Position numbers and translations under genes: made by a program. The notes beneath the pieces were generated by a model, which did not search any database, had not been told where the DNA came from, and worked only from the letters and a program-made list of their open reading frames with translations. From an uncultured Acidobacteriota bacterium (GTDB taxonomy: Bacteria > Acidobacteriota > Thermoanaerobaculia > Gp7-AA8), in the NCBI GenBank assembly GCA_963822445.1, contig CAWGHO010000001.1, positions 512,001-576,000 on the forward strand: a DNA stretch of 64,000 nucleotides. Reading direction: 5' to 3'. This document shows, one piece after another, positions 3,300-62,911 of the stretch. Numbering within the stretch: the stretch's first letter is position 1; each line of letters starts with the position of its first letter.

Positions 3300-3339
3300 G
3301 CGTCGTAGTGTCGCCGATTCGCAACGCCTATGGCAGCCT

Positions 3340-3537
3340 GAAGAATCGCTAGCGCTCGAAGCCGACGGTCCGCAGCCGGCGCTCTACACGTGGCTCTCCG
3401 CGATCCTCCTCCGGCGGCTGTTGTTGAACGCTCGTAGGGCCGATCCCGTCGCGGCGCTGGTCATGCTGCCGATCATCGCGCGCGATCGCCTCGAAGGCAT
3501 CCCCGGCGAGCGCTGCAACGATGGCTGCGGGGACTAA
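3340..3537 (+). pseudogene. Degraded C-terminal fragment of a cation-efflux (CDF)-type membrane protein
   Basis: SLALEADG...YTWLSAILL..LLLNA..ADPVAALVMLPII...GERCNDGC resembles the end of small CDF transporters; no start, N-terminus missing. Confidence 0.5.
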
Positions 3538-3594
3538 AAAGACGTGCGGACGAGCTGGGATGAGTCCGTGCCACGGAAGGTGTTCTAGTGTCGT

Positions 3595-7762: not shown

Positions 7763-8032
7763 TCAACTGCGTGAAGCGTCAGAGATCACGGCCGGCCTTG
7801 AAGTTGCGGCCGGTGTTCTTCCCCTTCGCGGTGCGGATGATCCTGCCCCGCCTTGAAGCTGTGGCGGTTCTGGTTCTCCTCGGTGAGTGACCGCGGCGCG
7901 GCGGCGACGCAGCCGCGAAGACGACGGATAGTTGATCGTCTCCACGACCGTGTATTGCGGCCAGCGGCGCGCGTCACGGGCGCTGATGAAGCGGCCGGAC
8001 GAGGCGCTGCGTGCGACCTTGCGCGTGCTCAT
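7763..8032 (-). CDS. Small basic protein (RSASSGRFIS...TVVETI type); 3' part possibly frameshifted
   Basis: ATGA overlap with the upstream gene; MSTRKVARSASSGRFISARDARRWPQYTVVETI. Confidence 0.55.
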   Translation of the reverse strand: MSTRKVARSASSGRFISARDARRWPQYTVVETINYPSSSRLRRRRAAVTHRGEPEPPQLQGGAGSSAPRRGRTPAATSRPAVISDASRS

Positions 8033-8370
8033 TCCTGCTCCGCGAGGTCCTTCCCCGCCTTGAACTGCGCGGTGATCTCGCCGCCGACGGCCGACAGCGA
8101 TTCGAGCGCCTGCGTGAACATGACGATGGCGGCACGCCACGTCGACGGGATGAGCGGGAGCGACGACAGGACGGTGAAGACCGGCCGGATGCCGCGCCAG
8201 ATCTTCAGCACCTTCTGCAGGCGGCCGTTCGGCGTGTCCTGCACGAGGGTGTTCTCCTGCTCCATGTCGACGTTGAGCGCGCGCAGCGTGCGATCGGTCG
8301 AGCGCTTGCTCTTCTCGATCATGGACTTCGACGCTTCGAGGGGATTCAGTTCTTTGGGATTCGTGCTCAT
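8029..8370 (-). CDS. Hypothetical 113-aa helical protein ending FKAGKDLAEQE
   Basis: Strong AAGGAGAGG RBS before ATG 8370; amphipathic helices. Confidence 0.7.
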   Translation of the reverse strand: MSTNPKELNPLEASKSMIEKSKRSTDRTLRALNVDMEQENTLVQDTPNGRLQKVLKIWRGIRPVFTVLSSLPLIPSTWRAAIVMFTQALESLSAVGGEITAQFKAGKDLAEQE

Positions 8371-8429
8371 GTTGATGCCTCTCCTTTCGAGGCAGGTCGG
8401 ATGCTGGTGGATGGGTGAAGAGAAGGCGG

Positions 8430-9588
8430 TCAGCGGGCGGGCCGGCGACGCACGCGCGGCATGCGCGTAGCGACGACGGCGGCGCGCTGGCGCGGCCTTG
8501 GGACGGCGGTGTGTTTGGCGACACACCCGACGACGGCCGGGAACAGGCCCACGTCCGACCAGGCGTCGGCGACGACACGCTGGATCGACGCGCCGTGGCC
8601 GTAAAGCTCGCCGGCGATGTCGACGGTGGCCTGCACGAAGTCCGCGAAGTCAGCCTCGGGCCGGAGCCGTTCGGTGAGCGCGGCGTACCAGATGCGCCCC
8701 AGCACGTTCCCACGTGTCGCCGCCGAGAGTCATCGCGGCGATGTAGAACGCGTGGTTGAGAATGCCGGAGTTGATGTGGACGCCGCCGTTGTCTTCCGTC
8801 GTTTCGACGTAGTCGCGCATGTGCGACGGTTGCGGGTCTTTGCCGAGGACGGGATCGTCGTAGGCAGTGCCCGGAAACGCCATGGACCGCACGGCTACGC
8901 CGTTTACGGCAGGGCCGAAAATCTCCGCGCCGATGAGCCAATCGGACTCGCTTGCGGACTGGCCGAGCAACCACTGCTTGACCATGATCCCGAACGCGTC
9001 GGAAAGGTGCTCGTTGAGCGCACCGGTCTGACCGTGATAGCCGAGAGCCGCGGCGAACTGCGTGAGGCCGTGCGTCAGCTCATGGGCGATCACATCGACG
9101 GATGCGGTGAAGCGCTTGAAGATTCGTCCGTCCGCGTGGCCGTAGACCATCTGGCGGCCGTTCCAGAGCGCGTTCTCGAAGGACGTGCCGTAGTGCACGG
9201 TGGAATCGAGACGCATTCCGCTGCCGTCGATGGAGGAACGCTGAAAGACGCTTGCGAAAAAATCGTACGTCGAGCCGCTCCCGTCGTAAGCCTCGTTGAC
9301 TTCGACGTCCTTGCCGCGCGTCTTGTGCTCGCTCATGACGAGCTTCCCGGGCAGGCGAAGGGTGTGGTTCGCGGAGTAGACGTTCCGCCGTTTTTTCGGA
9401 GTGGTGAGCGTGGCGGCAACCGCGCTCGGTCGTTCGAGGAGCGTTGCGGCGCGACCCGTGGCCAGCTCGCGCATGTGCTCGAGCGTGGCGCGGGCGGTGC
9501 CGCTTGCTTCAGAGGATGTGTGCTCGGCAACCCGCGTCAGGATGTGAGGCGGGATGACGCCGCATATGTACTGCGGTATGTTTCCCAT
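8430..9588 (-). CDS. Protealysin-like M4 metallopeptidase, frameshift near 8700
   Basis: CGVIPPHIL propeptide motif, NALWNG, HELTH, GALNEHLSD, DNGGVHINSG; C-terminus (GRIWYAAL...AWSDVG) lies in another frame. Confidence 0.85.
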
Positions 9589-9669
9589 GACACTGCTGCT
9601 CCTTTGGTCCTAGCAGACGGAGGGGCGTTCGTGTCCGGCCCGAGCCGCGTGCCGCGCGGCTCGGAGTCG

Positions 9670-10306
9670 TCACGAATCCCGCATCTCCTTCCGACTCGGA
9701 AGCAGGCGCGGCGTGGGAACGCCGATGCCGGGAGTCGCGGTGGTCTTACGCAACGCGAGAGGCGTTTTCGGACGGCCGCGGCGGCCGAGATCGCGCTTCA
9801 TGTTCGCGACGAGCGACGCGATGGTGGCGCTGTTCGGATCGCGAGCGAGGCCTTTCGCCACGTCGTACGTCAGCAGCGAGTCGGTGGCGAGTTTCGCCTT
9901 GCGCGAATCCATCGTGTACTTCAGGTTCTTCGCGAAGGCGTCCACCTTGTCGCGGACGGGACGGAAGGCTTCGAGGAACTGGATGGTGTCACGGGCGGCG
10001 TTCACGTCGAGCTTGTTGATCGCCTGAAGCTCCGGAACCTGTTCGACGGCCGCGGTGACGGTGGCCAGGAACTCGTTCGGAACGTTGAGGCGGGAGCGCA
10101 CGAGATTCGCGGTGGAGACGTGGATCGCTTCCAGCTTCGGAATGATCTGCGCAATCTCGTCGAGCGCGGACATGAACTCTGCGGCGACTTGCTGGTAATG
10201 CGTGATCGTCGGGGTCGGGAGTCTCGACGGTCGGTGCTGCGGTGGTGCCATCGGTCGCTGTTGCTGCTCCGGTGGCGTTTGCGGTGGTGGCTTTCGTTGT
10301 AGCCAT
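9670..10306 (-). CDS. Hypothetical helical protein with T/A-rich N-terminus; frameshift near 10220
   Basis: MATTKATTANA... continues in another frame as TPTITHYQQVAAEF...MKRDLGRRGR; GC3-biased codons. Confidence 0.65.
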
Positions 10307-11082
10307 ACACCCACACATTTCCTTCCCATCGCAACCGAACGCTACGCGCGGGCGGCGCGATGAATTCGCGTTACCGGCCACGTTTCGGCCGAAGCGTGGC
10401 GGGCGATCGTTGCTGCAGCAACTTGGTGAAGCGGTCTGGACCTGTCACTAAGATACGTGACGTTCGTCAAAGTCAGTTCGTTACCAAATTGTAACGACGC
10501 CTAGTTATTTGTCCCCCGCGTTGATTCTTAAAGACTTATGTTTTAGGCCGTTTATCCGCCTTTTTATGGTGTTTCAGCATAGTCAATTCTGAGAAGTCAG
10601 TTGGCATCAAAACTGAGAAGTTTCCGCCCGATCTCGGAAACTCTGGCGCATGGCACGCCGATGGCGGATGGTAGGGAAACGTGCCGGAATGACACCCCTA
10701 CAGGGTAGGGAGAGTTGTGCGTCGCATCCGGCCCCCGGCCTGGTAGATCGGCGCGACCGCCGCGCAGCGCGCCGGTCACGACGATCGGGGTGGGCGGCGT
10801 ACTCTCAGGGCGGCGGGATCTCTCGGGGGTGGTGAGCCCGGCGCGGCCGTTGCGCAGGCAGCGGACGTGACGGGCGGGGGTGGCGCGGCAGAATCTACGA
10901 GCGGTGGAGTCCCCCGGAGGGACGGGCGGCGCGGCGAGGCCGGCGCGAAGCGGCGGACGCGACGCGCGGGGGGCGCGCGGCCGCATCTACCAGGCGTAGA
11001 GCGCCTCGAGCGCTGGCGGTTTACCCCTCCTCTGCTGGGCCGATCGCCCGCGACCAGGAACGATCGCCGGCGCGAGCTCGCG

Positions 11083-11314
11083 GAAGTGAACCGCGGGCAC
11101 TTTCAAATGCGGAGCGATCAAAAACACGCGACCCGCGGTCACTTAAAAGTGAGCGCGGCGCACGTTCAACTGTCCTCAAGTTGAGATCAAAGTGAGGCGC
11201 GGTCACTTTCACTGTCCTCCAGACGAGAAGCAAGTGACCGGCGATCACTTTCACATGCCCGCGCGTCGAGTGAAAGTGACGCGCGGGCACTTAAAAGCGA
11301 AACGCGCGACGTCA
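11083..11314. repeat. Tandem array of about 11 21-bp units, consensus AAAGTGA-N7-TCACTTT
   Basis: Conserved units start at 11083, 11125, 11146, 11189 (perfect), 11231, 11273; divergent 21-22 bp units lie between them. Confidence 0.8.
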
Positions 11315-11911
11315 CCGCGTCTTGCGGCGAGGATGCGCACCGGACGGCGGCGACGTGACGGCCGGCGACGCGGCGCGAGCAGCCTTCGCGCGGCGCCAGC
11401 TCCGGAAGCGGCGAGCGAAACGGCGATCCCGCTCCGCGTACGCGAGCAGCGCCCGAATGAACGGCGACGTCCAGCCGTCGTACGCGAGCGAGAGAGTGGC
11501 CACGAATTCGCGCTCGCGTGACGTCTCTTCCTCGCGGTCGAGAGCACGCACCGCGAGGACGGTGCTCAGCACGGCGTTGACGTCGAAGGAATCGCGCCGC
11601 CAGCGCCGCACCGGGTGATTCTGGGTCCCGATCGGATCGGGCTTACCGAGCAGCGGAGGAACGGCGCACTTGCTGGCGCGCCAAGTGCGGAAGCGGCGGG
11701 CGACGCGCTGGGCGCGTTCCATGTACACCACGGCTGCAATGATGAAGATCGAAGCCGAATGACGGCGGCCGTCCGTGAGTGCTTCGTGCACGAAGCTGGT
11801 GAACACGTCGTGCATGCGGGCGTCCGCCTTCGCGAGATCGCGCAACGCGAGGCCGGCGTTGATGATCAACGCGACGTCGATCGACTCCGCGGCATTGCGG
11901 TAATGCCTCAT
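11312..11911 (-). CDS. Hypothetical protein with internal duplication
   Basis: ATGA overlap with the upstream gene; halves end ARRFRTWRASK and ARRFRSWRRAK. Confidence 0.55.
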   Translation of the reverse strand: MRHYRNAAESIDVALIINAGLALRDLAKADARMHDVFTSFVHEALTDGRRHSASIFIIAAVVYMERAQRVARRFRTWRASKCAVPPLLGKPDPIGTQNHPVRRWRRDSFDVNAVLSTVLAVRALDREEETSREREFVATLSLAYDGWTSPFIRALLAYAERDRRFARRFRSWRRAKAARAASPAVTSPPSGAHPRRKTR

Positions 11912-13047
11912 GCGCGCCTCACCACACGCTGCGCGGCGACGGCGGCAGCGGATGCGGAGACGCGTTGCCTCCGGCCGACGCGCGCGGCCACCACTTGCGC
12001 GACGGTGCCCGGCTGCTCAGCCGGAGACTGCGCCGCCTTCTCTGCCTGCGCGGGATCTTTGACGGTGATGACGAGGCAACCTTGCGACGCTTTGATGTAG
12101 ATGCGCGTGCGCGTCTTGAACCCGAACGACGCGAGCCAATGACCGCGCAGCCGCAGGAAAGGCACGAAGCGCTGATAGCCGAGTTCAAAGTAGCTGAGCG
12201 TCGCTTCGCGGATGCCATCGGGACGGTTGCGCCGCGCGGGCGCCGGCGACGTCTGCAGCGGTTCACCCGAGCGACGGCGCGCGCCGAGACGCCGACGACG
12301 TTTCGCCGGCGACTCGGGAACGTAGGGCATCAGCGGAGGCAACGGAGCAGCCGGAACAGCGACGCCCGGCGCGACGCCGGGCGATGCGCTGCCGTGGTCA
12401 CGGATCACCGAAGGTGCGGCAGCGACCTCCCGCATGGGCGGCGGCCGATCACAACCGCGAGAAGGCGGCGTTGCGGCAAGAGCGGGCGGCGGGATGAGGG
12501 CACAGGTGCGCGCGCTGCGGCCGCCCACTCGGGCAGCGCGCGCAACATGAACGCTGACAGGATCGGCGGCAGCGGTGTGCTTCGCCTCCCCCATGAACGA
12601 GGCAGCATCGTTGAACACGGGCACGTTGGCGACCAGCTCCGTGATGTGCTGCGCGGCGTAGTCGTCCAGGATGCGACCGAGCACCGTTTCTTTCGACTCG
12701 TTCCCCTTCTTGGCGAAGTACTCGAGCATCGCATCCGCGTACTCGTGGACCGGGACGATCAGCGGGCGGACGAGCAGACCGGGAGGAAAGACGTTGACCA
12801 CGTTCGGTCCTAGCGCTTCCTGAATGACCGAAAACGGCCATTGATGCGTGGCCTTTTCGATCAGTTCTGCGCGCGAGATCCGCGCGTCTTCTGCCGTGGG
12901 ATCGAGCTCGATATCGCCCCACTTGATGGCCTTGTCCATTTCGTCGAGCGTCCAGCCGAGCAGTTCCGCCGCGTGATCGGGCGTGACGGGCTGGCCGTCG
13001 TGTAGGAAGATGGCGCAGATGGATTTGACGAGGTCTGAATTCAGCAT
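11908..13047 (-). CDS. HTH-like N-terminal domain plus C-terminal SymE-like (AbrB-fold) toxin domain; may be two genes
   Basis: GGAGGG RBS; PFLRLRGHWLASFGFKTRTRIYIKASQGCLVIT matches the SymE pattern; Pro/Ala-rich linker. Confidence 0.65.
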   Translation of the reverse strand: MLNSDLVKSICAIFLHDGQPVTPDHAAELLGWTLDEMDKAIKWGDIELDPTAEDARISRAELIEKATHQWPFSVIQEALGPNVVNVFPPGLLVRPLIVPVHEYADAMLEYFAKKGNESKETVLGRILDDYAAQHITELVANVPVFNDAASFMGEAKHTAAADPVSVHVARAARVGGRSARTCALIPPPALAATPPSRGCDRPPPMREVAAAPSVIRDHGSASPGVAPGVAVPAAPLPPLMPYVPESPAKRRRRLGARRRSGEPLQTSPAPARRNRPDGIREATLSYFELGYQRFVPFLRLRGHWLASFGFKTRTRIYIKASQGCLVITVKDPAQAEKAAQSPAEQPGTVAQVVAARVGRRQRVSASAAAVAAQRVVRRA

Positions 13048-13118
13048 GATTCTGCCCTCCTGCTTATACAAAGTATTGTATACGCGGAGCGCGTCAGAAT
13101 CAACGCTAACGGCGGCCG

Positions 13119-13373
13119 ATGACTGAGCCGCTGAACGTCGGTAAGGTCTTCGGCGAGCGGCTGCGCGAGTTGCGCCTGAAGCGCAAGCTGACGCAGACAG
13201 AAGTAGCGCAGCGGTCGGGCCTGCTGCAGCATCACATCAGCCAGTTGGAGAACGGCGTGGGTATGCCGACGCTCGCAACGATGCTCAAGCTCGCGGCTGC
13301 GATCGGCTGCAAACCCACCGAGTTGCTCGCGCCGTTCAACGGGATAGACCTCGCAACGCTGCTCGACCAGTGA
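13119..13373 (+). CDS. XRE-family HTH transcriptional regulator
   Basis: FGERLRELR...LTQTEVA...ISQLENG..PTLATMLKLA. Confidence 0.9.
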   Translation: MTEPLNVGKVFGERLRELRLKRKLTQTEVAQRSGLLQHHISQLENGVGMPTLATMLKLAAAIGCKPTELLAPFNGIDLATLLDQ

Positions 13374-13591
13374 CGCGGCAATCGCGCGGAAACGCGCGCG
13401 GAGGCATCCAAAAATCGAATGTTCCACGGCTCAAGGGGTGTGTTCCACGCACAAGAAAGTGTGCACCTTGCGAGTCGACCGAAACTCGCAAGGTGACTCG
13501 CAAGGTCGCTGTTCCGCGCCCGCAAGTCACTCGGTTTCAGTGAGTTATCCCACGGCTCGTAGATCGACTCCTCTCTATGTACCCACGACCT

Positions 13592-13641
13592 CCGGCCTGT
13601 CACGCCGGAGGTCGCGGGTTCGAGTCCCGTCGGCCCCGCCA
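13592..13641 (+). mobile_element. 3' half of tRNA-Asp(GTC); probable att site at the island's right boundary
   Basis: Anticodon arm CCGGC-CTGTCAC-GCCGG, T arm GGGTTCGAGTCCC, CCA end; no D arm or 5' acceptor strand upstream. Confidence 0.85.
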
Positions 13642-32255: not shown

Positions 32256-32267
32256 CATAAAAATTAT

Positions 32268-32384
32268 CCCGGCGGCGTCCTACTTTCCCACGCAGTTGCC
32301 CGCGCAGTATCATTGGCGATGCGGAGCTTGACTGCCGTGTTCGGAATGGGAACGGGTATTTCCTCCGCTCTATGACCACCGGAA
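32268..32384 (-). rRNA. rrf: 5S rRNA
   Basis: Reverse complement contains CCCGTTCCCATTCCGAACACGG and AAGTAGGACGCCGCCGGG. Confidence 0.95.
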
Positions 32385-32482
32385 ACTTGGTTTCTGGTTG
32401 GTTAAAGCAAAATTCATTGAATACGGGTAGTAGTGAGATGGTCGGCGTTGTAGCTAGCAGACAACATCAAATCAAGACAAAT

Positions 32483-35453
<2,971 letters not shown>

Positions 35454-35707
35454 AAAGTGCCTTGATCTCATGCGATCTGCAGCTACCACACGTTTACTCA
35501 CGATATGACGCTTGCATCTCATTTACTTACCCGTATTCAATTGTCAAAGAGACTTCGGGCGTCGGTGCCCTGAAAACTGACTAGGAAAGCACGAGGCGAA
35601 ACGCTTGCCGAGCATTGCGCTCAGCAGATTCCTTTCGACCTAGGTTGACATCATTCGGCACCTAGACGATGCCGTCGCGATCTCGTTTTGATCCGAGACG
35701 GAAGATG

Positions 35708-37250
<1,543 letters not shown>

Positions 37251-37404
37251 TTATCTGTTGAATTTGAAGCTCTAGCATCAGTCAGTAACGACTGTTGCTT
37301 ATTCGGATACTTCTTATGTGTGTTTCTGACGAGTCCGACGTTGTTCAATGAACATAGTCAGGACTCAAAGGAATCACGTTTGCCTTCGTTGCTTTCCTAT
37401 TCAG

Positions 37405-53398: not shown

Positions 53399-55075
53399 CT
53401 AAACGGCCTCTGCCGCGCGCGGAAAACAAAGGCGGCAAAGCTCGAACCCATCGACGCTCGTCACTTCCATGCGCACGGTTCCCGTCAGCCGGCGCGCACT
53501 GACGCAAGTCGGCTGATGAACCTTGCGCGATTTCGACGAGGCGATGAAGGTCATCGGCCGCTCCTGGAGGATGGTCTCGACGTCGACGCGCAACGGCACG
53601 AGCTGCAGCGCCGGCAGTTCCCCATCCACGAACACGTATCGCCCCTCGGTCCACGAGAGCAGCTCCGCGATCTCATCCTGCATCTTGCTGCGCATCGCCT
53701 CGATCAGCTGATCCTCGGTGATCGCGCCGAGGATCAGCAGGATGCGGCCGAGGGCGAGCTGGGAGGCCTGCTTGATCTCGTTGGCCATCAACCGCTGCTC
53801 GCCGGTGATCGCGCCCGATGAAAGCAGTCGATTGGTGAGGAACTTCTCCGGATCGTTCGAGGCGCAGGAGAAGATCCGTCCCTCTTCGAAAAAGATCTCC
53901 TTCTCCGAATCGCCGCTGTGCACGATCAGCGTTCCGCTGCGCTCGTGGAAGGCCTGCTCGCGAAGGACGCCGATGATGCGCGTGTCGGCGAGCGGTCGCC
54001 AGGCGCGCTCGGGCGGCGCGGGCACGCTCACCTCTTCTTCTTCGATCACCGTCGTGCTGACGCGACGCAGTTCTTCCTCGGCCTTCTTGCGCCGCTCGAT
54101 CTCGTCGCGCAACGCGCCGGTCATGATCCGGAGCTCGGTCATCGTCTCTTCGCTCGAGCGGCGGAGGTCGTCGATGAGGTCGCGCAAGGACAACTGGACG
54201 CGCTGCTCTTTGTCGAGCTGTGTGCGGAGTTGTTCGATGAGCGGAGCGGTGTCGGGCGCTTTCGGCGCGGACGGAGTGGTAATCGTCTCGATATAGCCGC
54301 GCAACGCGCCCTCCGGCTTGTACGGCGCGAGCGTGCTGCGGATCCAGACGTGGCCGCCGTCGCGAGTCACGCGCCAGTCCTCCATCTCAACGCGCTGCGC
54401 CGCGGCGTTCTGCAGGACGGCGGTCGACTTCCCTTCCCAACTGTCCGCGTCGCGATACAGCGAGCGGCGGTTCTTGCCGATGATCTCGTCGCGTGAATAG
54501 CCGAAGAGCCGCTGTGCGCCGGCGTTCCAGCCGGTGATCACGCCGTGGGTGTCGGTGCGGATGACGGCGACGTCGACCAGTTGATCGATGACGGCGGCGA
54601 ACACACGGTCCGGTTCTGCTTTGCGCGGCGCAGATTGCGACTGCGACTGCGACTGGGACTGGGGTTCGTCGACGATGTAGATGAAGACCGCGGCGTCGCG
54701 CGCGACGGTCGTAAGCACTTCCAGCATGCGATAGCGGCCGGTCCGGGCCATGACCCGCTTTTCGAGGCGGTAGCTGTCGCAATCCGCGCCGAGCAGCCGT
54801 TTCATCAGCGGCAGCTCTTTCTTCGCGTCTTCGGGATGGGTGATTCCGTTGAACGAGACGCGGGCAAGCTCTTCGCGGCTGTAACCGACCAGCTCCTGAA
54901 AGCGATCGTTCATGAATAGCCAGTTGCCGTCGAGCGTGGCCACGGCGATTCCCACCGGCGCCAGCGCGATCGCGGCGCGAATGCGCTCTTCGCGCGGAAT
55001 CGCGCCGCGCTTCGCCGGCCGCACGCCCGGTTTCCGGACGAGGGAGATCACCTGGTCGACGAGGGGGATGCGCAT
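53399..55075 (-). CDS. PAS-PAS-coiled coil-DUF4388(PatA-N)-like protein with C-terminal metal-binding motif
   Basis: ITHPED, WNAGAQRLFGYS, RSGTL...IFFEEGRI, LLSWTEGRYVF, H..TC...CRLC. Confidence 0.8.
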   Translation of the reverse strand: MRIPLVDQVISLVRKPGVRPAKRGAIPREERIRAAIALAPVGIAVATLDGNWLFMNDRFQELVGYSREELARVSFNGITHPEDAKKELPLMKRLLGADCDSYRLEKRVMARTGRYRMLEVLTTVARDAAVFIYIVDEPQSQSQSQSQSAPRKAEPDRVFAAVIDQLVDVAVIRTDTHGVITGWNAGAQRLFGYSRDEIIGKNRRSLYRDADSWEGKSTAVLQNAAAQRVEMEDWRVTRDGGHVWIRSTLAPYKPEGALRGYIETITTPSAPKAPDTAPLIEQLRTQLDKEQRVQLSLRDLIDDLRRSSEETMTELRIMTGALRDEIERRKKAEEELRRVSTTVIEEEEVSVPAPPERAWRPLADTRIIGVLREQAFHERSGTLIVHSGDSEKEIFFEEGRIFSCASNDPEKFLTNRLLSSGAITGEQRLMANEIKQASQLALGRILLILGAITEDQLIEAMRSKMQDEIAELLSWTEGRYVFVDGELPALQLVPLRVDVETILQERPMTFIASSKSRKVHQPTCVSARRLTGTVRMEVTSVDGFELCRLCFPRAAEAV

Positions 55076-55151
55076 GGTGGGAGGGGGTGGATTGTACCTC
55101 TGTCGTCGCGAGGGGCGACGCGATCGACATCCAGCCGCAAAATCTGAGAAC

Positions 55152-55398
55152 TTCAGCGAAGTCGCTGAAAACACCAGCAGCCAGACCGCCATCGTTCACT
55201 GATTCGCTGAAAGGCATCGCAACGTCGGCTGCTATTTAAGCTAAGTCGCTGAAATGCGACACGAACGACGTTGCCTCTCTTGATGTATCGGGCCACAGTT
55301 TCAGCGAACTTGCTTGAAACGCAGGGGACATCGCTGATTTTTAATCGAGTTCGCTCAAGTCTCACGCGCTCAGGGTCAATTTTTCAGCATATTCGCTG
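55152..55398. promoter_or_regulatory. Cluster of TCGCTGAAA motifs upstream of an XRE gene
   Basis: Direct copies at 55162, 55204, 55246; inverted copies at 55152, 55299; partial copies at 55331, 55351, 55382, 55393. Confidence 0.6.
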
Positions 55399-55410: not shown

Positions 55411-55779
55411 TTGAAGACACGCGAGTTTGGAGTGCGTTTGACGCAATATCGCGAGCGGCTGCAGCTGTCGATCACCGAGCTCGCCAACCGCCTCGGCGTC
55501 GACTACATGCAGATCTCCCGCTATGAAAAGGGGCAAAGCCTCCCATCGCTCGAGACCGCGATCCGTCTCGCGAAGGTCCTGCAGGTTTCCCTCGACGACC
55601 TGGCCACCGGAAGCGAGCCCCCCGAGCCCCCCATGTTCCGGAACGCGCGCCTCCTCAAGGCGATGCGCGAGCTCGACCAGATTCCGCCCGAGCGGCAGGA
55701 GCTCGCCCTGCGAGTCCTCGACACCGTCATCGCCGGCCACGAGCTCGAAACCCTCGGCGCCCGCCTGCGCCGCTCGTGA
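55411..55779 (+). CDS. XRE-family HTH transcriptional regulator
   Basis: FGVRL...LSITELA...QISRYEKG..PSLET..LAKVLQVSLDDL. Confidence 0.9.
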   Translation: MKTREFGVRLTQYRERLQLSITELANRLGVDYMQISRYEKGQSLPSLETAIRLAKVLQVSLDDLATGSEPPEPPMFRNARLLKAMRELDQIPPERQELALRVLDTVIAGHELETLGARLRRS

Positions 55780-55884
55780 GGGATCGCGTGGTCGGGTGCT
55801 CTGGTACTAGCGCGCAGTAAAGACGCTGCTCTGGGTTTCAGCCGCTGAGCCACAGACTGAGTTCTCTGTCGACGGCGCCGACCT

Positions 55885-55934
55885 TCGGCCCGTCACGCCG
55901 CAGGTCGCGGGGTCGAGCCCCGTCGGCCCCGCCA
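55885..55934 (+). repeat. Degenerate copy of the tRNA-Asp 3' half (att-like scar)
   Basis: 45/50 identity to 13592-13641; both are preceded by CGACCT, continue AAT after the CCA and have a downstream GC hairpin. Confidence 0.8.
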
Positions 55935-56019: not shown

Positions 56020-56531
56020 TCCCGAGCTGCTGCGCTCCTCGACAGCCAGATCGGCGCGTTCCAGTTGCGGCGTGGGAGCGCCGAAGCGGCGGCCCTGCGG
56101 TTCAGCGTCGCGTACCAGGCGTTCGATGCCGCCGAAAGGGCGCGCGAAGCGCTCCTGGCTCGCAAGGGGATGGCCGAGGCCGCGGTCGCGCGCGGGTGTT
56201 TCACGAGGCGGTCTCGGAGTACTACAAGGTGCAGGCATTGCTCCTCGCGAACGGCGACGTCGTCGATGCCGCGGTCGCCTCGGCGGAGATCCTCGACCTG
56301 CCCCTCCCCGCCGGCCGCCACGATGAACTGCTGCAGCGCGCCCACCTCTTCGTGGGCACGTTCGCCGAGGCGGGCCTGAGGTTGAACGCGCTGCATGCGT
56401 AAACGTTCCTCCGCCGGCGTGCTCGAGCCGGCGCGCTGACCCACGAAGACCTCGCCGCCGCCCGCGATTACTTCGAGCGCCTGCCCCTTCGCCCGAACGC
56501 GCCCTTCATCCCGCCGGAGCCGGGCCGATGA
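56020..56531 (+). pseudogene. Broken C-terminal fragment of a TPR-like helical protein
   Basis: Helical Ala/Leu-rich segments across three frames, an internal stop, no start. Confidence 0.45.
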
Positions 56532-56656: not shown

Positions 56657-59600
56657 ATGCCGACGCTCCAGGACGCGGTCGATGCGATCGACCGTGGGGA
56701 AGATGCAGTCGCACGCGAACTCCTCAATTCGCTACTCGCAACCGATCCGGCACTCATCGATGCTTGGGTATGGCTCGCGACACTCGCAGAAGCAAGAAAC
56801 GACTTCGCGGAGCAACGACATTGTCTTGAGCGGATCACGGCAATAGATCCGAACAACTCCGAAGCGCGACGCATCCGTATACGCCTTCAACGAGCGGACG
56901 CATCGTCACAGCCTATGGCGCCAGCGCCGTCGGAAGTGCCACCTGGTGACCAGCCGCAACCGCAGTCTGACGTGGTGGAACACGAACTTGCCGACGAGGA
57001 AAATGACGGCGCCGGCACAGATGCCGACACACGGCACGTCATCAGGCTTGCGGCAACTCCGCGCCTCGACAAGATCGGCGCTCCCGTCTGGGATTGGTTC
57101 TTCGCCGACGAACGCTCGCTAATCGGCGCCTTACCGTCGCTCCTCAAAGACTTTATCGACGCGGGACAGGCGTTCGGTGCGGATACGGCACGCCTTGAGC
57201 GACTCCACACGACAGTGGCCGAAGGAAATGAGGAAGCGCGCAGAAATCTACTGGTAGCCGTGTTGCGCAGCGGCGTCGAGGCGGCGACCTTTCTAAATAG
57301 GCAAGAATCCTGCGGCCAGGCATTCTGGATCGCCAACGCTCTCTACCAGGCCGGGAAAATCGTCAGTTTCCGCGAGAAAAACAACACGCCTAAGATGATG
57401 GAGCGGTTGCTGGTTATTGCCGCCGACGCGGCGGCTCGGCTCGTCCCGTCCTCAGTAGCAATCGACGACCTGCAGATGGCCATAGATCGAATCATCACAC
57501 TCGCGCACAGCACGCGATACGTTGGACGTACCTTTGCATCCGTGCGTCCCGATCTCGGGATCGTCGAAAAAATCGCCCTCGATACGATTGCCGCAGATTT
57601 CGATCGCCGCTTGCGAGAGATGGTGGAGAGTGACCGACCCAGTATCAATGAATATGTCTCGAACAATATGCCGAAGCTGTACCGAATGAGACTTTCACCG
57701 GAATGGTTGGCGTGTCGAGATGCGTGGGAACAGGCCATCATTGATGCTGGGTACGACGACACGCTACGCAGCCTGAAGAGCTTGGGGCTCCTCGTACGAG
57801 TGGACCAAATTGGCATCATTCTTCCCGACGCACGGGATCAGATCCGAATGGCCGCGGACGCCGGTGATTACGCAAGCATCCGCAAGTTACTCGAACCCAG
57901 CGAAAAGGAGTTGCGGAACCTACTGTACAAGGAAACGCAGACTGCACTCGTGTTTCGCGAGCCACCGTCGCCGACCCTCAGGCAACAACACCGCGAGCCG
58001 TGGCAGCGCGCCATGCGAACATTACGCAACCACGGCCCGCGAGCCGCCATGGTGAAGGTCAGCGAGATCTGGCAAGAAGATGCCAACAATCTCGATATCC
58101 GCGATTGGGCCGCGTACCTGCACGCGCAGGACGCCAGCAAGCTGCAGGCGGAGCGGATCCTCACGGTCATCCGCGACTCCCGAAAGGCAGACCACAATTT
58201 CACCACGAGCTGGAACCTAGCCGTAATCTATTCGCAACGACATGAGGAGGCGAAAGCCTACGAGCTGCTGCTACCGTTATTCCATACGCATCAGACTGAC
58301 GAGCGCCTGATCAAGGTGCTGCTCGGGCTTGCGCGGTCCCTCAACGATCATGAGGGCTTCCTCCGCCTCATTCCCCAGTCGCGCACTCTGATGTACCACC
58401 CGATCGCATTTACGCTCGCTGTGGAGATCAACGATGATGCCCGCGCAAAGAGCATCCTCACGGAGATGATTGCGCGATGGGAACATCAATGGGACCTTCC
58501 ACATGTCAGCGCGCTCTATCGCAACGAAGATGAGCTGATAGCGGTCGTCACAAGCGGGATGATCGCGGGCCAGATCGAACAAGTCATTGCGTGGCTGCGC
58601 GCGCGCATCGCTGCAGCTCCGGCGTGGATCCCGAACTACCTCGTGTTGGCGAATGTACTTGAGCGCGAGCATCGTGACTTCGATGATGCATTTCAAGTGC
58701 TGCTCGAGGGATGCAAACGGCGCAGAGACGACGATCCGCGGCGTGACGCGGCGTATCGCGACCTGCTCGATTTGTGCCGTCGCGCGAAGCGCACAGATCT
58801 CGAACAGAGAGCGTACGAGTTCGCGAAGAAAGCACGCGTGAGCGAAAGCGTCCTCAGCCAGTTCCAAGTCGATTCGCGTGTGGTTAAGGATCGTGCGAGT
58901 GACGACGAAACCGAACCCTCTCAGACACCGCCACCAACAAAACCTCCGAAAGTTGTGACGCGCGAAGAGCCAAATTTCACGTGGATTACGGCTAAGCTGG
59001 CGCGCATCCGCGACGCCGACTCGTTTAGTAAGGAGCAGGTTGCGCTCGACGATTTCTCGTCGATGCTTTCTAGGTACTATCCCGATACGAGCGTTCAGAT
59101 CGTCCCTTGGTTGAAGGATCTCTCGAAGATCACGAACCAGTTCGCAGAAGCAGAACCAGAGTCGTCATATAACGATCGCGTAGTACTGTACAACCGCGCC
59201 ACAGCTATTGAGCGGGACCTCACGCGTCACATGGAGAGTGGAGCATTGCCACCGGACTTGGTGGAGGTCATGACGCCATATCATGAGGCGCTCAAACGCG
59301 TCGTCAGCAACCTTTCGCGCGCGGCCGGCGTCGGCCCGAAGGTCGAATCGACCATCCTAAATTCATTCATTGCTCCTGACGCGCCACGCACCACGGTCGT
59401 GGTTCAACTGAAAAACACGACCAACGGCGAACGAACAATTACTGATGTCGTCGTCGAACTGCGAGCAGAGCGCAATCTCGCTGCTGTAATGCCTCGGCAG
59501 CGGCTGATTCGGAGGTTGGAGGCGGCGCAGACCGTAGACATCAATTTCACGATCACGCTAGACGCAACGGCGCGCTCGGCGGCTGAGGTGACGTTTGACA

Positions 59601-61396
59601 TGTACGTCCGTTCGTCGGTGGAAGGGTTCCTAAACGTCGATCAACCAATAGCGCAGACGAAATTACCGGTAAGAACGCTTAGAGCGGCGATCAATACCGA
59701 CGAGATTCCAAAGCTCTTCATTGATAGCAGTCCGTTGGATCAGTCGTCGCAGCTGTTTCATGGACGCGACACCGTCATGCAGAGAATTCGGAGTAGCCTA
59801 TATGACGGTACACAGCGGGAACGTTTGTTTCTCGACGGTATCCGCCGCGTAGGCAAGAGTTCGATCATTAACTTTGTTCCCCTAAATGTACCCGACGTAA
59901 TTATTGCCGTTCCGTTGGGAACGGAGGGGCTGGGCCTGCAGGTACCGCTCGACGCGGCCGTGGTGCTTTGGAAGATCGCCAAAGTGATTGACGACGCTTT
60001 CCGCGCGCGCGCCATCACGCGACCAGCGCTGCCGACGCCGCCGACAATCGATGGCTGTGCAGCGTATTTCGAGTCCGTGAAGGCGGTTACTGGTTACACT
60101 CCACTGCTCATGGTTGATGAATTCCAGGAGATGTTAAAGAGCATCAAGGAAACCGGTCGGAATGCCGAGGTAATTCTCGACATCCTGCGTAATGCACTGG
60201 AGAAGCGTTTTATTTATGGCCTGTTCACCGGTTCGATCCGTTTCTCCAGTTTGTCAACGATTGTTCCACACCGGATTTTCGGCAATATTACCCGCTTGCG
60301 CGTCTCATTCCTCGAAGAGCCAGACGTTATGGCGGTTCTTCGCGCTGGCTTTGGGCAGTGGGTAGTCGCCACCCCCGGCGCAGTTAAGAGTATCTTCGAG
60401 CTTACAGGCGGCTATCCGTACATAGTACAAAAATTTGGCTCCGCACTCGTGACACTCCTTAATGAGGAGAAGCGCTGCATCGCGAGCAGCGACGACGTGG
60501 AGCGTGTGGCCAGCGCCGATCTCCTGAGTGACGACAGCATCTTTGAGTATTGGTGGCCGACCGATCAGTTGCGCCGTGATGAGGAGCGGGCGGTGGAACT
60601 GCTGTTCCATCACTTTCCTGATGCGACCTCTGTTTCAATCGATGACTTCCTCGGCAGAGTAGAGCGTCGCGAAGTCGAGAACCTCCGCAAGGCGCTGCAG
60701 AACCTACAATCCTGCGAAGTGCTCGATTCCACGGGCGCGGGCCAACTACGCTTTACGGCTGAGATCGTACGCCGATGGCTTCACGGCCACTACCACCGCG
60801 CCGAACGACGCCTGCGGATCCCGATGCAGCAAGAGGATTCTTCACTGCCGGCTATCGTTGCGAATACGCGGCCTCTTCTCGGCCACGTCGGCGTTTATAT
60901 CGATCACGAGAACTTCGTCAGGTCTCTCGCCCGAATTCGAATCGCGAGGTCGAGCGAGAACGAGCCAGCAGTGCGTTGGTTTGACCGCTCGCTTAAGCAA
61001 GTGCTCGGTGAAGTCGAAAAACGCTTCGGACGCATCGATCAGAAAGTCGCGGTTGCGTTCTGGGATCGTCAGGATGAGATGCGGTTGCAGCCGTCGTATA
61101 CGAGGCGGGACTTCGACGTGCGAACGCCGGAGCGCACGGGCAAAGGCAATGAAGCCGATTTCAAGCTCGCAGATGAGATCCGCCGTTCTATGGCCCAAGC
61201 CAAACTCGAAGGAGCCTCGCTGCGTGATGCGATTGTTATCACGGGTGATGCGGATTTCACGAACGTCATCAGTGGCTTGAAAAACGACGGTGTTAATGTG
61301 CATGTCTGGGCGGCCGGGGCGTCCGCTAGTCAAACGCTCATTGGTCTCGTTGGTCCAGAGAACGTCGTGATGCTCGACGACATTTGTGTTACGTAG
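56657..61396 (+). CDS. Large TPR - Ig-like - P-loop (STAND/AAA) ATPase - NYN/LabA (PIN-fold) nuclease protein
   Basis: 1579 aa; N-terminal TPR; Walker A GIRRVGKSS, Walker B LLMVDEFQ, LTGGYPY; NYN motifs YIDHEN, ADFKLA, ITGDADF. Confidence 0.85.
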   Translation: MPTLQDAVDAIDRGEDAVARELLNSLLATDPALIDAWVWLATLAEARNDFAEQRHCLERITAIDPNNSEARRIRIRLQRADASSQPMAPAPSEVPPGDQPQPQSDVVEHELADEENDGAGTDADTRHVIRLAATPRLDKIGAPVWDWFFADERSLIGALPSLLKDFIDAGQAFGADTARLERLHTTVAEGNEEARRNLLVAVLRSGVEAATFLNRQESCGQAFWIANALYQAGKIVSFREKNNTPKMMERLLVIAADAAARLVPSSVAIDDLQMAIDRIITLAHSTRYVGRTFASVRPDLGIVEKIALDTIAADFDRRLREMVESDRPSINEYVSNNMPKLYRMRLSPEWLACRDAWEQAIIDAGYDDTLRSLKSLGLLVRVDQIGIILPDARDQIRMAADAGDYASIRKLLEPSEKELRNLLYKETQTALVFREPPSPTLRQQHREPWQRAMRTLRNHGPRAAMVKVSEIWQEDANNLDIRDWAAYLHAQDASKLQAERILTVIRDSRKADHNFTTSWNLAVIYSQRHEEAKAYELLLPLFHTHQTDERLIKVLLGLARSLNDHEGFLRLIPQSRTLMYHPIAFTLAVEINDDARAKSILTEMIARWEHQWDLPHVSALYRNEDELIAVVTSGMIAGQIEQVIAWLRARIAAAPAWIPNYLVLANVLEREHRDFDDAFQVLLEGCKRRRDDDPRRDAAYRDLLDLCRRAKRTDLEQRAYEFAKKARVSESVLSQFQVDSRVVKDRASDDETEPSQTPPPTKPPKVVTREEPNFTWITAKLARIRDADSFSKEQVALDDFSSMLSRYYPDTSVQIVPWLKDLSKITNQFAEAEPESSYNDRVVLYNRATAIERDLTRHMESGALPPDLVEVMTPYHEALKRVVSNLSRAAGVGPKVESTILNSFIAPDAPRTTVVVQLKNTTNGERTITDVVVELRAERNLAAVMPRQRLIRRLEAAQTVDINFTITLDATARSAAEVTFDMYVRSSVEGFLNVDQPIAQTKLPVRTLRAAINTDEIPKLFIDSSPLDQSSQLFHGRDTVMQRIRSSLYDGTQRERLFLDGIRRVGKSSIINFVPLNVPDVIIAVPLGTEGLGLQVPLDAAVVLWKIAKVIDDAFRARAITRPALPTPPTIDGCAAYFESVKAVTGYTPLLMVDEFQEMLKSIKETGRNAEVILDILRNALEKRFIYGLFTGSIRFSSLSTIVPHRIFGNITRLRVSFLEEPDVMAVLRAGFGQWVVATPGAVKSIFELTGGYPYIVQKFGSALVTLLNEEKRCIASSDDVERVASADLLSDDSIFEYWWPTDQLRRDEERAVELLFHHFPDATSVSIDDFLGRVERREVENLRKALQNLQSCEVLDSTGAGQLRFTAEIVRRWLHGHYHRAERRLRIPMQQEDSSLPAIVANTRPLLGHVGVYIDHENFVRSLARIRIARSSENEPAVRWFDRSLKQVLGEVEKRFGRIDQKVAVAFWDRQDEMRLQPSYTRRDFDVRTPERTGKGNEADFKLADEIRRSMAQAKLEGASLRDAIVITGDADFTNVISGLKNDGVNVHVWAAGASASQTLIGLVGPENVVMLDDICVT

Positions 61397-62017
61397 CTCC
61401 CCGGGCGCGGGAGGGCAGACAGTACGAGTCTTCGTACGGAGATCGTACGCAGCGAGGCCCGCGCCTTCTCCGCGCACCAGCGCCGCGGATCCGTTTGCAA
61501 CTGGCGGCATAACCAACCCGGACAAGCTGGTGGTGAACAACCGCATGGTCGCGCATCGTAACCTCGACCTCGACGCCATGCCCGGCAGCGGTGGCCTCGC
61601 GGGATGGACGGAGGGTCGGGCCTGCCGGCAGGCTTCGTCGCGCGAGGTGCAGATATACGGCAGCGGCGCCGCGCCGGCGGTTGGTCGCGCCGAGTCTGCC
61701 GGAGGAGGCGATCGTCGTGACGTTCGGGCCGAAGAAGTTCCGCTACGAGGAGACTAAGGTCCCGAAGGACGAGAGAAGGCAAAGGACGCGCTGCTAAAAG
61801 AGACTCGCTGCGCGGCTACGACATCGACCGGGCCATCCTGCGCGAGGTCAAGCGCGGCGCCGAGATCGTCGTCGGCGAAACGAACCTCGAGCGCGACAAG
61901 CCGGCCCGCCTCTTCGTTGGCCGTGCATTCGGCGAAGTGGGACCGCGAGCAGCTCACGCAGGAAAGTTTCACCCCCTCCGCAACAACCGCGTGCGTTCTC
62001 TCGTAAACGCACGTCCA

Positions 62018-62911
62018 ATGACACTTTCCATTTCTGGCCTCTCGAAAACGTACCCGAATGGCACCCGGGCGTTGAAAGGGATCTCCCTCGACGTTCCGCC
62101 GGGGATGTTCGGGTTGCTCGGGCGCAACGGGGCCGGCAAGTCGACGCTCATGCGCATCCTGGCCACGCTGCAGGAGCCGGATGAGGGAACGATTCATCTC
62201 GGCGAACTCGACGTCATCCGGCAGAAGGAGCTCGTTCGCGAGACGCTCGGGTACCTCCCCCAGTCGTTCGGCTTCCACCCGCGGGTGCGGGCGGAGCGGT
62301 TGCTGGATCACTTTGCCGTCCTGAAGGGTCTCGTCGACGCCGCGCCGAGGCGCGAGGTCGTGGAGGCGCTGTTGCGGCGGACGAATCTGTGGGACGTGCG
62401 CAACCAGCGCGTCGGCACGTTCTCCGGCGGCATGCGCCAGCGCCTCGGCGTGGCCATCGCGCTGCTGGGGAGTCCGAAGCTGATCATCGTCGACGAGCCG
62501 ACGGCGGGACTCGACCCCGAGGAGCGCGTGCGGTTTTTGAATTTGCTGAGTGAGATCGGGGAAGCGAGTGCGGTCATTCTGTCGACGCACATCGTCGAAG
62601 ACGTCGAGGAGCTGTGCAGCAACCTGGCGATCATCGACCGCGGCGAGATCCTCCTCGCCGGTTCGCCGGCGCGCGTGATCGCGGAAGTGCGCGGGCGGAT
62701 CTGGCGTCGCACGGTAACGCGGGAGGAGCTTCCGGCGCTGGAACAGGAGCATTCGGTGATCTCGACGAAGCTGCTGGCCGGACAGACGATCGCGCACGTG
62801 TATGCCGACGAGTCGCCGGGATCCGGCTTCGAGCCGGTCGAGCCCGACCTGAAGGACGTCTACTTCGCGGTCATGGGCGGTCACCGCGGCGCGCGGGCGG
62901 CGGCGGCATGA
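62018..62911 (+). CDS. ABC transporter ATP-binding protein
   Basis: GRNGAGKST, FSGGMRQR, IIVDEPT, STH. Confidence 0.95.
   Translation: MTLSISGLSKTYPNGTRALKGISLDVPPGMFGLLGRNGAGKSTLMRILATLQEPDEGTIHLGELDVIRQKELVRETLGYLPQSFGFHPRVRAERLLDHFAVLKGLVDAAPRREVVEALLRRTNLWDVRNQRVGTFSGGMRQRLGVAIALLGSPKLIIVDEPTAGLDPEERVRFLNLLSEIGEASAVILSTHIVEDVEELCSNLAIIDRGEILLAGSPARVIAEVRGRIWRRTVTREELPALEQEHSVISTKLLAGQTIAHVYADESPGSGFEPVEPDLKDVYFAVMGGHRGARAAAA

Follow-up and report, generated by a model that had tools for sequence, protein, structure and literature searches.

The gene at 56657..61396 (+) of the window (the whole 64,000-nt stretch analyzed, positions 512,001 to 576,000 of contig CAWGHO010000001.1 from an uncultured Acidobacteriota bacterium) encodes a 1579-residue protein in which helical and TPR-like repeats are followed by an NTPase and a C-terminal NYN nuclease domain. 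We read it as an NLR-like (STAND-type) stand-alone switch in the order sensor, NTPase, effector, with conflict or defense as its most likely use, and give this reading a probability of about one half. The family to which it belongs is rare, horizontally scattered, and previously undescribed.

The Avs/bNACHT NLR-like proteins are the clearest innate-immunity link between prokaryotes and eukaryotes; to our knowledge, all those characterized have the effector first and the sensor last. The window protein resembles them in being one large polypeptide with a P-loop NTPase, lid, and winged helix (with fold matches to EfAvs5 and Avs3), in having a TPR-like array as likely sensor and a nuclease as likely effector, and in being encoded by an accessory, horizontally moving gene. 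It differs in its order (sensor, NTPase, effector here; effector, NTPase, sensor in Avs/bNACHT), as was proposed in an earlier note made from the DNA letters: the TPR repeats are indeed N-terminal and the NYN domain C-terminal. It also differs in its NYN/LK effector, and its family is not known to have a defense phenotype.

That note did not recognize the architecture as a named system, and no full-length match was found in PADLOC, NCBIfam, or the literature searched. A full-text literature search found no description of a prokaryotic STAND or AAA+ NTPase fused to a NYN/LK nuclease. "NYN" does not occur in the text or the supplementary files examined of a 2026 Nature survey of 589 STAND clades (PMC13581612), the remaining files of which could list it; in the available text of the eLife 2021 paper that defined nSTAND1 (PMC8195603), it occurs only in animal TRADD-N proteins.

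Gene and domain order

The open reading frame (ORF) has no internal stops, and the frame opens merely 11 codons before the ATG (1590 aa in all). A Shine-Dalgarno-like GGGAGAG lies 6-12 nt 5′ of the ATG, and the start residues are shared with the closest homologues in the family alignment. The gene is present once in its own 6.0-Mb, three-contig genome, and its ORF is real and intact. A promoter and terminator scan was uninformative (no promoter-like sites; 7 terminator-like sites, with 5.4 expected). Three soil-metagenome DNA runs contain small shares (0.06-0.15) of the gene's words. Searches of NCBIfam and of PDB sequences with the single protein gave nothing useful.

The protein was modeled with AlphaFold as two overlapping parts, from alignments of natural relatives: residues 1-770 (32 rows; predicted local distance difference test, pLDDT, 88.0) and residues 766-1579 (60 rows; pLDDT 92.5; predicted template modeling score, pTM, 0.74). 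Structural matches were sought with VIA-align (VIA) among 48,161 PDB representatives. The models agree with the domains first listed for this protein, and add to them a helix bundle (residues 775-890), absent from that list, and a winged helix. The features, with the evidence for each, are:

56657..61396, + strand: whole gene; ATG start, 1579 codons plus stop
56657..56908, + strand: N-terminal TPR unit, residues 1-84 (Pfam below cutoff, model helices, VIA matches)
56909..57106, + strand: disordered Pro-rich linker, residues 85-150 (pLDDT, composition, identity)
57107..57973, + strand: all-helical, family-specific region, residues 151-439 (model, with helices at 152-430; conservation)
57974..58861, + strand: TPR-like repeat array, residues 440-735, candidate ligand-binding sensor (model, VIA, profile)
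58862..58978, + strand: Pro-rich flexible linker, residues 736-774 (18% Pro, pLDDT <50, 9% family identity)
58979..59326, + strand: helix bundle of six helices, residues 775-890 (model pLDDT about 90)
59342..59671, + strand: beta-sandwich, Ig/CARDB-like, residues 896-1005 (about ten strands in the model)
59711..60796, + strand: NTPase module, residues 1019-1380, with P-loop nucleotide-binding domain (NBD), helical lid with GGYP, and winged helix (model, VIA, Foldseek, motifs)
Residues 1394-1407: disordered linker (model)
60881..61393, + strand: NYN/LK-nuclease domain, residues 1409-1579, 1409-1577 in the model (PF01936, VIA, conservation)

The NTPase module

The NTPase, lid, and winged helix are modeled at residues 1019-1377, the lid helices and winged helix occupying 1240-1377. 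The intact Walker motifs and GGYP noted at first sight are present and conserved: Walker A is GIRRVGKSS (1061-69) and Walker B is MVDEFQ (1152-57), and the module also has LFHGRD (1033-38), FTGSxR (1190-95), and GGYPY (1251-55). The key residues are K1067 of Walker A, D1154 and E1155 of Walker B, and the arginine R1195. In the 18-row alignment, which represents the family, G1066, K1067, D1154, and E1155 are invariant, as are F1034, G1036, R1037, R1195, and the GGYP at 1251-54; in the 60-row alignment, which takes in distant relatives, the key residues of all these motifs, the Walker K, D, and E among them, show conservation of at least 90% or no variation at all.

The highest-scoring VIA matches are the archaeal PF01637 ATPases 2qen_A (Z 20.4; root-mean-square deviation, rmsd, 4.6; 327 residues aligned) and 2fna_B (Z 19.5, 315 aligned). 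Foldseek is concordant (2qen, TMt 0.68; 2fna, TMt 0.60), and a search with the family profile picks up both, at E = 2.3e-4 (2fna) and E = 0.011 (2qen). These proteins, PABY2304 (2qen) and SSO1545 (2fna), match the unit of NTPase, lid, and winged helix better in structure than any others, but are stand-alone ATPases of about 350 residues and of unknown function, without sensor or nuclease, and only 15-16% identical. Plant NLRs follow (the wheat resistosome 9h2l, Z 18.2; the TIR-NLR WRR4A, Z 16.8; ZAR1, Z 13.2), with other switches (CED-4, Z 13.8; MalT, Z 13.6; EfAvs5 9jap, Z 13.2; NLRC4, Z 13.2; Avs3 8dgc, Z 12.8) and DNA-linked AAA+ proteins (ORC2 1w5s, Z 18.1; Cdc6/Orc1 2qby, Z 17.4; MuB 8xvb, Z 14.6; TnsC, Z 14.1-14.4). 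The VIA alignments with 9h2l, 9qlv, 2a5y, and 6j5t run through the NBD, lid, and winged helix, and the module is therefore taken to be a STAND/ORC-type switch and not a generic AAA+ domain.

STAND NTPases are marked by a Walker A of the form GxxxxGK[ST], a Walker B of the form hhhhD[DE], a "GR" ahead of the P-loop, an arginine after strand 4 (sensor-1), and a GxP lid followed by a winged helix, and usually have the order N-terminal effector, central NTPase, C-terminal repeat sensor. The Walker A and B, the GxP lid, and the winged helix are all found in the window protein. LFHGRD is presumably the "GR" motif and R1195 the arginine after strand 4, positions assigned with the help of the secondary structure of the model. 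The order is a different one: TPR/helical, Ig-like, NTPase, NYN. Fold coverage of the NBD, lid, and winged helix and the STAND-type motifs together support an NTPase of NLR/STAND-like character.

The nuclease domain

Pfam PF01936 matches residues 1411-1561 above its cutoff (E = 1.9e-8, 35.4 bits against 24.2) and is matched by 14 of the 18 core family members. The motifs are IDHENF (1415-20), D1501, and TGDADF (1529-34), giving the acidic set D1416, E1418, N1419, D1501, D1531, and D1533; of these, D1416 and N1419 never vary, conservation across 60 sequences reaches at least 90% for E1418, D1501, and D1531, and D1533 is retained in the family alignment. By VIA the domain superimposes both on the LabA-like VPA0982 (2qip_A; Z 17.9, rmsd 2.7, 155 of 162 residues) and on the NYN domain of mouse MARF1 (5yaa_A; Z 17.7, rmsd 2.6, 149 of 150 residues). 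Used alone as a query against PDB sequences, it had no match at E ≤ 10. By family match and modeled fold, the C-terminal domain is a NYN/PIN-like nuclease with predicted activity, as first proposed; a domain of some other kind would have spoken against that proposal.

In the available text of Anantharaman et al. (2010; PMC2848206), PF01936/DUF88 is named LK-nuclease and grouped with PIN, NYN, and 5′-3′ nucleases, and LK-nucleases are described as fused to RNA-binding domains (OST-HTH, RRM, cold-shock, Zn-knuckle). According to the available part of a preprint (bioRxiv 10.1101/2024.01.29.577857), the NYN domain of MARF1 (Limkain-b1) is an active RNase dependent on its aspartates. With MARF1 and VPA0982 the window domain shares PF01936, superposition over about 150 residues, and the acidic residues, as well as combination with RNA-binding domains in relatives of the window protein. 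Here, unlike in those proteins, the NYN domain is preceded by an NTPase switch and by some 1000 residues of N-terminal sequence, and there is no OST-HTH.

The ORC2, Cdc6/Orc1, MuB, and TnsC matches also allow the protein to be seen as a DNA-directed ATPase-nuclease, with an ORC/Cdc6-, MuB-, or TnsC-like AAA+ ATPase joined to a PIN-like DNA cutter, in a restriction-like system or as the leftover of an integrative element at tRNA-Asp. A DNA-binding role for the winged helix is conceivable, the gene lies just beyond a tRNA-Asp scar (described below), and the PIN-like superfamily, in the part of PMC2848206 available, includes 5′-3′ DNA nucleases. However, the nuclease fits the RNase-type MARF1 NYN and VPA0982 far better than the other listed matches, AAA+ matches at Z 13-18 are generic for the fold, the heads of relatives (below) are RNA-binding and not DNA-binding, and no integrase or transposase adjoins the gene in the window or consistently at other loci. 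Taken together, these points make a DNA-directed role quite improbable.

The N-terminal half and the middle region

Residues 1-87 and 440-729 align with many TPR proteins at Z 11-14, values common for helical repeats. Residues 1-84 match small TPR proteins by VIA (Z 11-12.8, rmsd about 2); for the array at about 440-729 in the model the best match is MamA (4xi0; Z 14.3, 171 aligned), with the KLC1/2 TPR domains at Z 12.8. Independently, the profile of alignment A2 matches consensus TPR proteins at E = 4e-29. The N-terminal paired-helix repeats are thus, by model and profile, TPR. The proposed 750 or so residues of TPR/helical repeats are in this way borne out by model and profiles, but not by Pfam itself, in which TPR_19, TPR_9, and TPR_14 match at residues 15-78 only and all below their cutoffs.

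The TPR unit at 1-84 is optional, being present in 11 of 17 aligned relatives, while the helical region at 151-439 is conserved in all 17. For the latter no specific structural match was seen, in what was barely a test, and the ESM Atlas had no usable match for residues 140-440. The linker between them (85-150) is 13% Pro, with 15% mean identity in the family and pLDDT <50 over 86-129. The second Pro-rich linker (736-774) is the one that had been proposed, and likewise the beta-rich, Ig-like segment appears in the AlphaFold model as an all-beta domain. CARDB (PF07705) matches in just one of the 18 core members (E = 0.005), and Pfam places CARDB at the equivalent position in the propeller-bearing relatives P0094, P0122, P0124, P0134, and P0141.

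Relatives and their architectures

In a word-indexed search that scored 7999 candidates, 18 further clusters passed E ≤ 1e-3, with lengths of 1127-1777 aa and 34-83% identity, from Thermoanaerobaculia metagenome-assembled genomes (MAGs). Annotation of the family stops at "hypothetical" or "NYN domain-containing protein." The N-terminally truncated P0004 was excluded from the family alignment (A1). With residues 780-1579 as query, an exhaustive HMMER search gave 2141 proteins at E ≤ 1e-3, 557 at ≤ 1e-10, and 48 at ≤ 1e-30, in three tiers: the core family, NTPase-NYN proteins with other heads, and proteins sharing only the NTPase. In the second tier (20-30% identity), NTPase-NYN follows TPRs, a cold-shock domain (CSD; P0047, P0050, P0054), or an RRM (P0075); the CSD- and RRM-headed proteins have their RNA-binding head, about 900 residues, and then NTPase-NYN, which suggests direct sensing of nucleic acid. 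In the third tier the NTPase lies behind a TIR domain (P0074), a Ser/Thr kinase (P0086), FtsK-4TM (P0084), or WD40/Reg_prop/CARDB arrays (P0082, P0093, P0094, P0111, P0122, P0124, P0134, P0141); TIR, kinase, and similar domains belong to the vocabulary of nSTAND1 conflict systems as described in the available text of PMC8195603.

Pfam assignments of the NTPase are weak in the core family, in which the 18 members give weak AAA_14, AAA_22, and AAA_16 matches (AAA_16 in just one) and none matches nSTAND1 (PF20703) at E ≤ 0.01; the window protein itself has no match to ATPase_2 (PF01637). Relatives were scanned as 30 and then 15 of the 150 matches listed, picked to sample the tiers. Among these, HMMER relatives at E = 1e-17 to 1e-22 exceed the nSTAND1 cutoff of 27.1 (P0149, 61.7 bits; P0074, 35.2; P0100, 31.4; P0163, 29.0), and others exceed the ATPase_2 cutoff of 33.2 (P0089, 59.5 bits; P0122, 34.7; P0063, 33.4). 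In the nearest ESM-Atlas cluster (score 0.98), nSTAND1 is found in 72% and ATPase_2 in 66% of members. As far as sequence comparison goes, the NTPase belongs to the nSTAND1/ATPase_2 neighborhood and not to the NACHT or Avs clades. The likeness to nSTAND1 (Kaur, Iyer, Burroughs, and Aravind, 2021; PMC8195603) consists in relatives that pass its cutoff and in the TIR and kinase partners of the sister clade. The available text of that paper has the NTPase as "central" whereas it lies at or near the C-terminus here, and does not mention a NYN-STAND fusion.

A phmmer-detectable NYN domain is present in 59 of the 139 proteins whose coverage of the 362 NTPase residues exceeds 250. In an NTPase tree of these 139 rows (FastTree, with local supports only and an arbitrary root), a branch with support 99 separates all 59, together with 10 others, from the remaining 70 rows, none of which has NYN. 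The 10 others comprise three with a Pfam NYN match (P0116, P0137, P0146), four whose HMMER alignment extends into the query's NYN domain (P0057, P0083, P0104, P0118), and three that are C-terminally truncated (P0019, P0043, P0045). Since all NYN rows share one side of this branch, NTPase-NYN looks like one old module with exchangeable N-terminal heads. Among the 80 related proteins without NYN, 71 end no more than 61 residues past the NTPase envelope; judged from these alignments, a C-terminal NTPase, and with it the "reversed order," is the rule across the whole NTPase clade and not peculiar to this gene.

Full length is kept across phyla at 30-45% identity. In the closest relative, a Thermoanaerobaculia MAG (L009, 76% aa identity), a TGA at 11504-11506 replaces the Trp codon of HREPWQRAM and splits the homologue into ORFs of 624 and 1127 aa; a recent nonsense mutation or an error in sequencing would each account for it. 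The idea that many homologues are broken was not borne out by tblastn, in which a clean nonsense codon is seen at L009 alone; the L053 homologue belongs to a tandem pair, and that of L057 runs off its contig. Frame changes in metagenome copies (L016, L046/L047, L054-L056, L059) may be assembly errors. The gene could on this showing be a functionless passenger, recently acquired, heading to decay, and with no role in its host, as the L009 nonsense codon and the frame changes of several metagenome copies would have it. Against this, however, stand the 1579 open codons, the intact catalytic motifs, the Shine-Dalgarno-like GGGAGAG, and the retention of full length at such low identity, which needs purifying selection; a passenger is accordingly a very remote prospect.

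Two loci have further peculiarities. At L053 the homologue is directly followed by an NTPase-only paralogue (2469-4511), and at L051 about 1.5 kb (7888-9448) interrupts the homologue between its Ig-like and NTPase parts, as a split gene or an insertion.

Distribution and probable horizontal acquisition

Among 40 relatives' genomes (a tally that counts the unpublished genome G002 as negative), a full-length homologue is found only in G013, of the same genus, at 44% identity; within the genus the count is 1 of 24. The same-genus genome G001, without the core gene, has a second-tier relative with 28% identity over residues 1017-1553:

L003 (G001:C200) 1381-4674 and beyond, - strand: second-tier NTPase-NYN protein of more than 1097 aa (NYN, E = 4.9e-10)

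Five further matches in the 40 genomes are TPR-only (E about 1e-4 to 1e-3). None of 400 genomes drawn evenly from the phylum has NTPase-NYN at E ≤ 1e-20; G133 matched the NTPase part only. In named public records the core family occurs in Thermoanaerobaculia, Pyrinomonadaceae, Bryobacteraceae, Aminicenantes, Bacteroidota, Calditrichota, and Desulfosarcina variabilis, and thus in four phyla (Acidobacteriota, Bacteroidota, Calditrichota, Desulfobacterota); a further 21 homologue loci come from metagenomes.

The gene is more AT-rich than its flanks in the window (GC 0.573 against 0.645), as had been remarked. Measured against flanks of up to 10 kb, 14 of 17 loci show the same, by at least 0.02 in GC, with L016 and L046 equal to their flanks and L049 higher. 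When 31 genomes were searched (including the unpublished G002 and G041), DNA similarity to 30 same-genus genomes started exactly at the ABC-transporter gene downstream (about 61,935-61,970 in the window), and in G045, G044, G008, and G003 nothing upstream of the ABC gene matches near the window gene. Horizontal acquisition, the origin suggested at the outset, fits the patchy distribution, the low GC, and this break in synteny. Vertically conserved homologues outside defense islands were to have counted against a defense role: the homologues are patchily distributed and have no recurring neighbor, but most of their loci are without defense neighbors.

Possible functions

From the architecture, the intact motifs, and the company kept in the sister clade, we infer a ligand-gated, ATP-dependent, oligomerizing switch over an RNase, and with it ligand sensing by the TPR array, oligomerization, an RNA substrate, and a role in defense. 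The accessory, transferred behavior of the gene makes conflict or defense its most likely use: the protein is probably an ATP-gated RNase used in conflict, and a defense role is plausible. At rest, the ADP-bound NTPase would hold the protein monomeric and the C-terminal NYN domain idle. The trigger would be a ligand on the N-terminal helical/TPR array, an invader protein here and perhaps RNA in the CSD- and RRM-headed subfamilies. Ligand, together with ATP at K1067 and D1154/E1155, would cause the NTPase and winged-helix modules to oligomerize; the oligomer would cluster or unmask the NYN domains, and RNA would be cut by their four-acid metal site. The outcome would be a stop to translation in the invader, the host, or both, as growth arrest or abortive infection.

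The neighborhoods of homologues were compared in about 20 distinct loci (L009-L012, L016-L018, L041-L057; L047, L048, and L058 seem to duplicate L046, L011, and L017). Defense-type neighbors by PADLOC are a PtuA-like ATPase (L016, E = 2e-40), an AbiEi-like protein beside an HTH_37 gene (L042, E = 5e-20), and a PDC-S09 candidate (L050). More generic PADLOC matches are a RecQ-like helicase (L011), a kinase (L052), and an E1-like protein (L057); toxin-antitoxin-like genes are found at L012 (DUF4160/DUF2442, ParE) and L045 (DUF5615), and other or mobile genes at L018 (two transposases, Schlafen/AlbA_2) and L052 (PRiA4_ORF3). The defense and mobile genes are suggestive of a conflict role. Neighborhood analysis, which the earlier note had put forward as a check, is thus favorable in about three loci, but no neighbor recurs in the roughly 20, and there is no conserved partner gene. 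In the available part of PMC13581612, the chance of finding a DefenseFinder system within 5 kb of a random gene is put at 0.0153, a figure not comparable with the PADLOC single-protein matches used here. One other large gene lies near a homologue: at L041, an ORF of 1533 aa (8928-13529) without Pfam or PADLOC match stands about 4.8 kb downstream of a 69%-identical homologue.

Several observations weigh against a role in defense or conflict. PADLOC models give only a weak NYN match (E = 2e-4) and no Avs or NACHT model; the protein itself matches no STAND Pfam family (NACHT, NB-ARC, nSTAND1-6, AAA_16) at E ≤ 1; and the best fold matches of its NTPase are uncharacterized archaeal PF01637 ATPases and ORC/Cdc6, not NLRs. 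A defense-type neighbor is present in only about 3 of 20 distinct loci, a count without matched background, and most homologue neighborhoods are metabolic or without assigned role; the window's own neighbors are PAS/DUF4388, XRE, and ABC-transporter genes. No homologue turned up among 72,556 plasmids, 50,697 phages, or the viral contigs searched. The putative sensor regions, at 30-39% identity against 43% in the NBD and NYN domains, form a sensor-like part that is no more variable than the enzyme domains, which counts against defense. The NYN-only defense candidate HEC-09 protected against none of the phages tried, according to the part of bioRxiv 10.1101/2024.01.29.577857 available. No RNA runs are listed with the gene, which is counted here but is not evidence either way.

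The CSD- and RRM-headed relatives, and the pairing of PF01936 with RNA-binding domains, also fit ordinary RNA metabolism (PMC2848206, available text), and bring in the chief competing explanation: an ATP-regulated processing or surveillance enzyme for the cell's own RNA, in an accessory stress or regulatory role and not in immunity. The TPR array would dock on the ribosome, the degradosome, or a stress protein, the NTPase would act as timer or assembly switch, and the NYN domain would trim or degrade particular transcripts. LK nucleases co-occur with OST-HTH, RRM, cold-shock, and Zn-knuckle domains (same source); CSD and RRM heads are found in the sister subfamily itself; conservation is even over all domains; and most neighborhoods are metabolic or unassigned, with no match to a known defense model. 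Cellular RNA processing would, however, be expected to be more vertically conserved than a gene so patchy (1 of 24 congeners, 0 of 400 genomes in the phylum, four phyla) and of foreign composition in 14 of 17 loci, with a TGA at a conserved Trp codon in L009. On balance an enzyme of this kind is possible but somewhat unlikely; were it one, it would be the first LK nuclease controlled by an ATP switch.

If the protein is instead the ligand-gated, oligomerizing RNase of the preferred NLR-like reading, it would widen the STAND design space and add NYN/LK to its effector repertoire, and the CSD- and RRM-headed relatives would allow the direct sensing of RNA by a STAND protein to be put to the test. 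A bolder proposal, which we hold only tentatively and think unlikely as a whole, is that the NTPase-NYN clade is an unrecognized, "back to front" branch of NLR-like immunity, in which swappable heads would read invader proteins or nucleic acid and the NTPase would oligomerize and fire a MARF1-type RNase. The clade is coherent, with everything placed ahead of the NTPase, and one branch (69 of the 139 tree rows) adds the MARF1-type RNase behind it. If the proposal is true, bacteria would have their own counterpart of innate immunity that senses and cleaves RNA, and a whole nSTAND1/ATPase_2-like clade with C-terminal NTPase would signal in opposite polarity to classical NLRs.

Surroundings of the gene in the window

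The features around the gene, and a second tRNA fragment farther upstream, are:

13590-13641, + strand: second 3′ fragment of tRNA-Asp(GTC), including the anticodon arm (pattern search)
53399-55192, - strand: PAS/DUF4388 gene, window neighbor
55411-55779, + strand: XRE-family helix-turn-helix (HTH) gene (Pfam HTH_3, E = 1.6e-16)
55882..55934, + strand: 3′ fragment of tRNA-Asp(GTC), att-type scar (sequence reading and pattern search)
56049..56501, + strand: gene remnant; two same-genus genomes have a 382-aa TPR-like ORF, of which it matches the C-terminal part alone
61937-62911, + strand: ABC ATPase gene, downstream neighbor

The XRE gene, the tRNA scar, and the gene remnant had all been pointed out earlier; the first is confirmed by its HTH_3 match, the scar repeats the 3′ end of an intact tRNA-Asp, and the remnant is supported by its match to the 382-aa ORF. 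The XRE gene is not conserved beside homologues and is context only. The 540 bp or so between gene and ABC gene (61397-61936) hold only ORFs without family match (61386-61757, +; 61330-61782, -); the interval is not conserved in relatives.

ARAGORN and Rfam called no tRNA near the gene. The last 32 nt of the scar (55903-55934) have two mismatches to the second fragment (13610-13641) and one more to the intact tRNA-Asp(GTC) gene, which lies about 72 kb upstream of the scar (G000:C1:495403-495479) and about 30 kb upstream of the second fragment. An island bounded by the two fragments and containing the gene was considered and rejected: the gene falls immediately beyond the last fragment, and in relatives no tRNA-Asp adjoins the ABC gene, so the acquired segment cannot be delimited. 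Between the two fragments is a complete rRNA operon on the - strand (32267-37251; 5S 32267-32383, 23S 32483-35451, 16S 35716-37251), which would be odd for a simple integrated island. The second fragment is itself preceded by an ORF ending at 13373, of XRE-type HTH by eye, the same pairing of XRE gene and scar as at 55411-55934.

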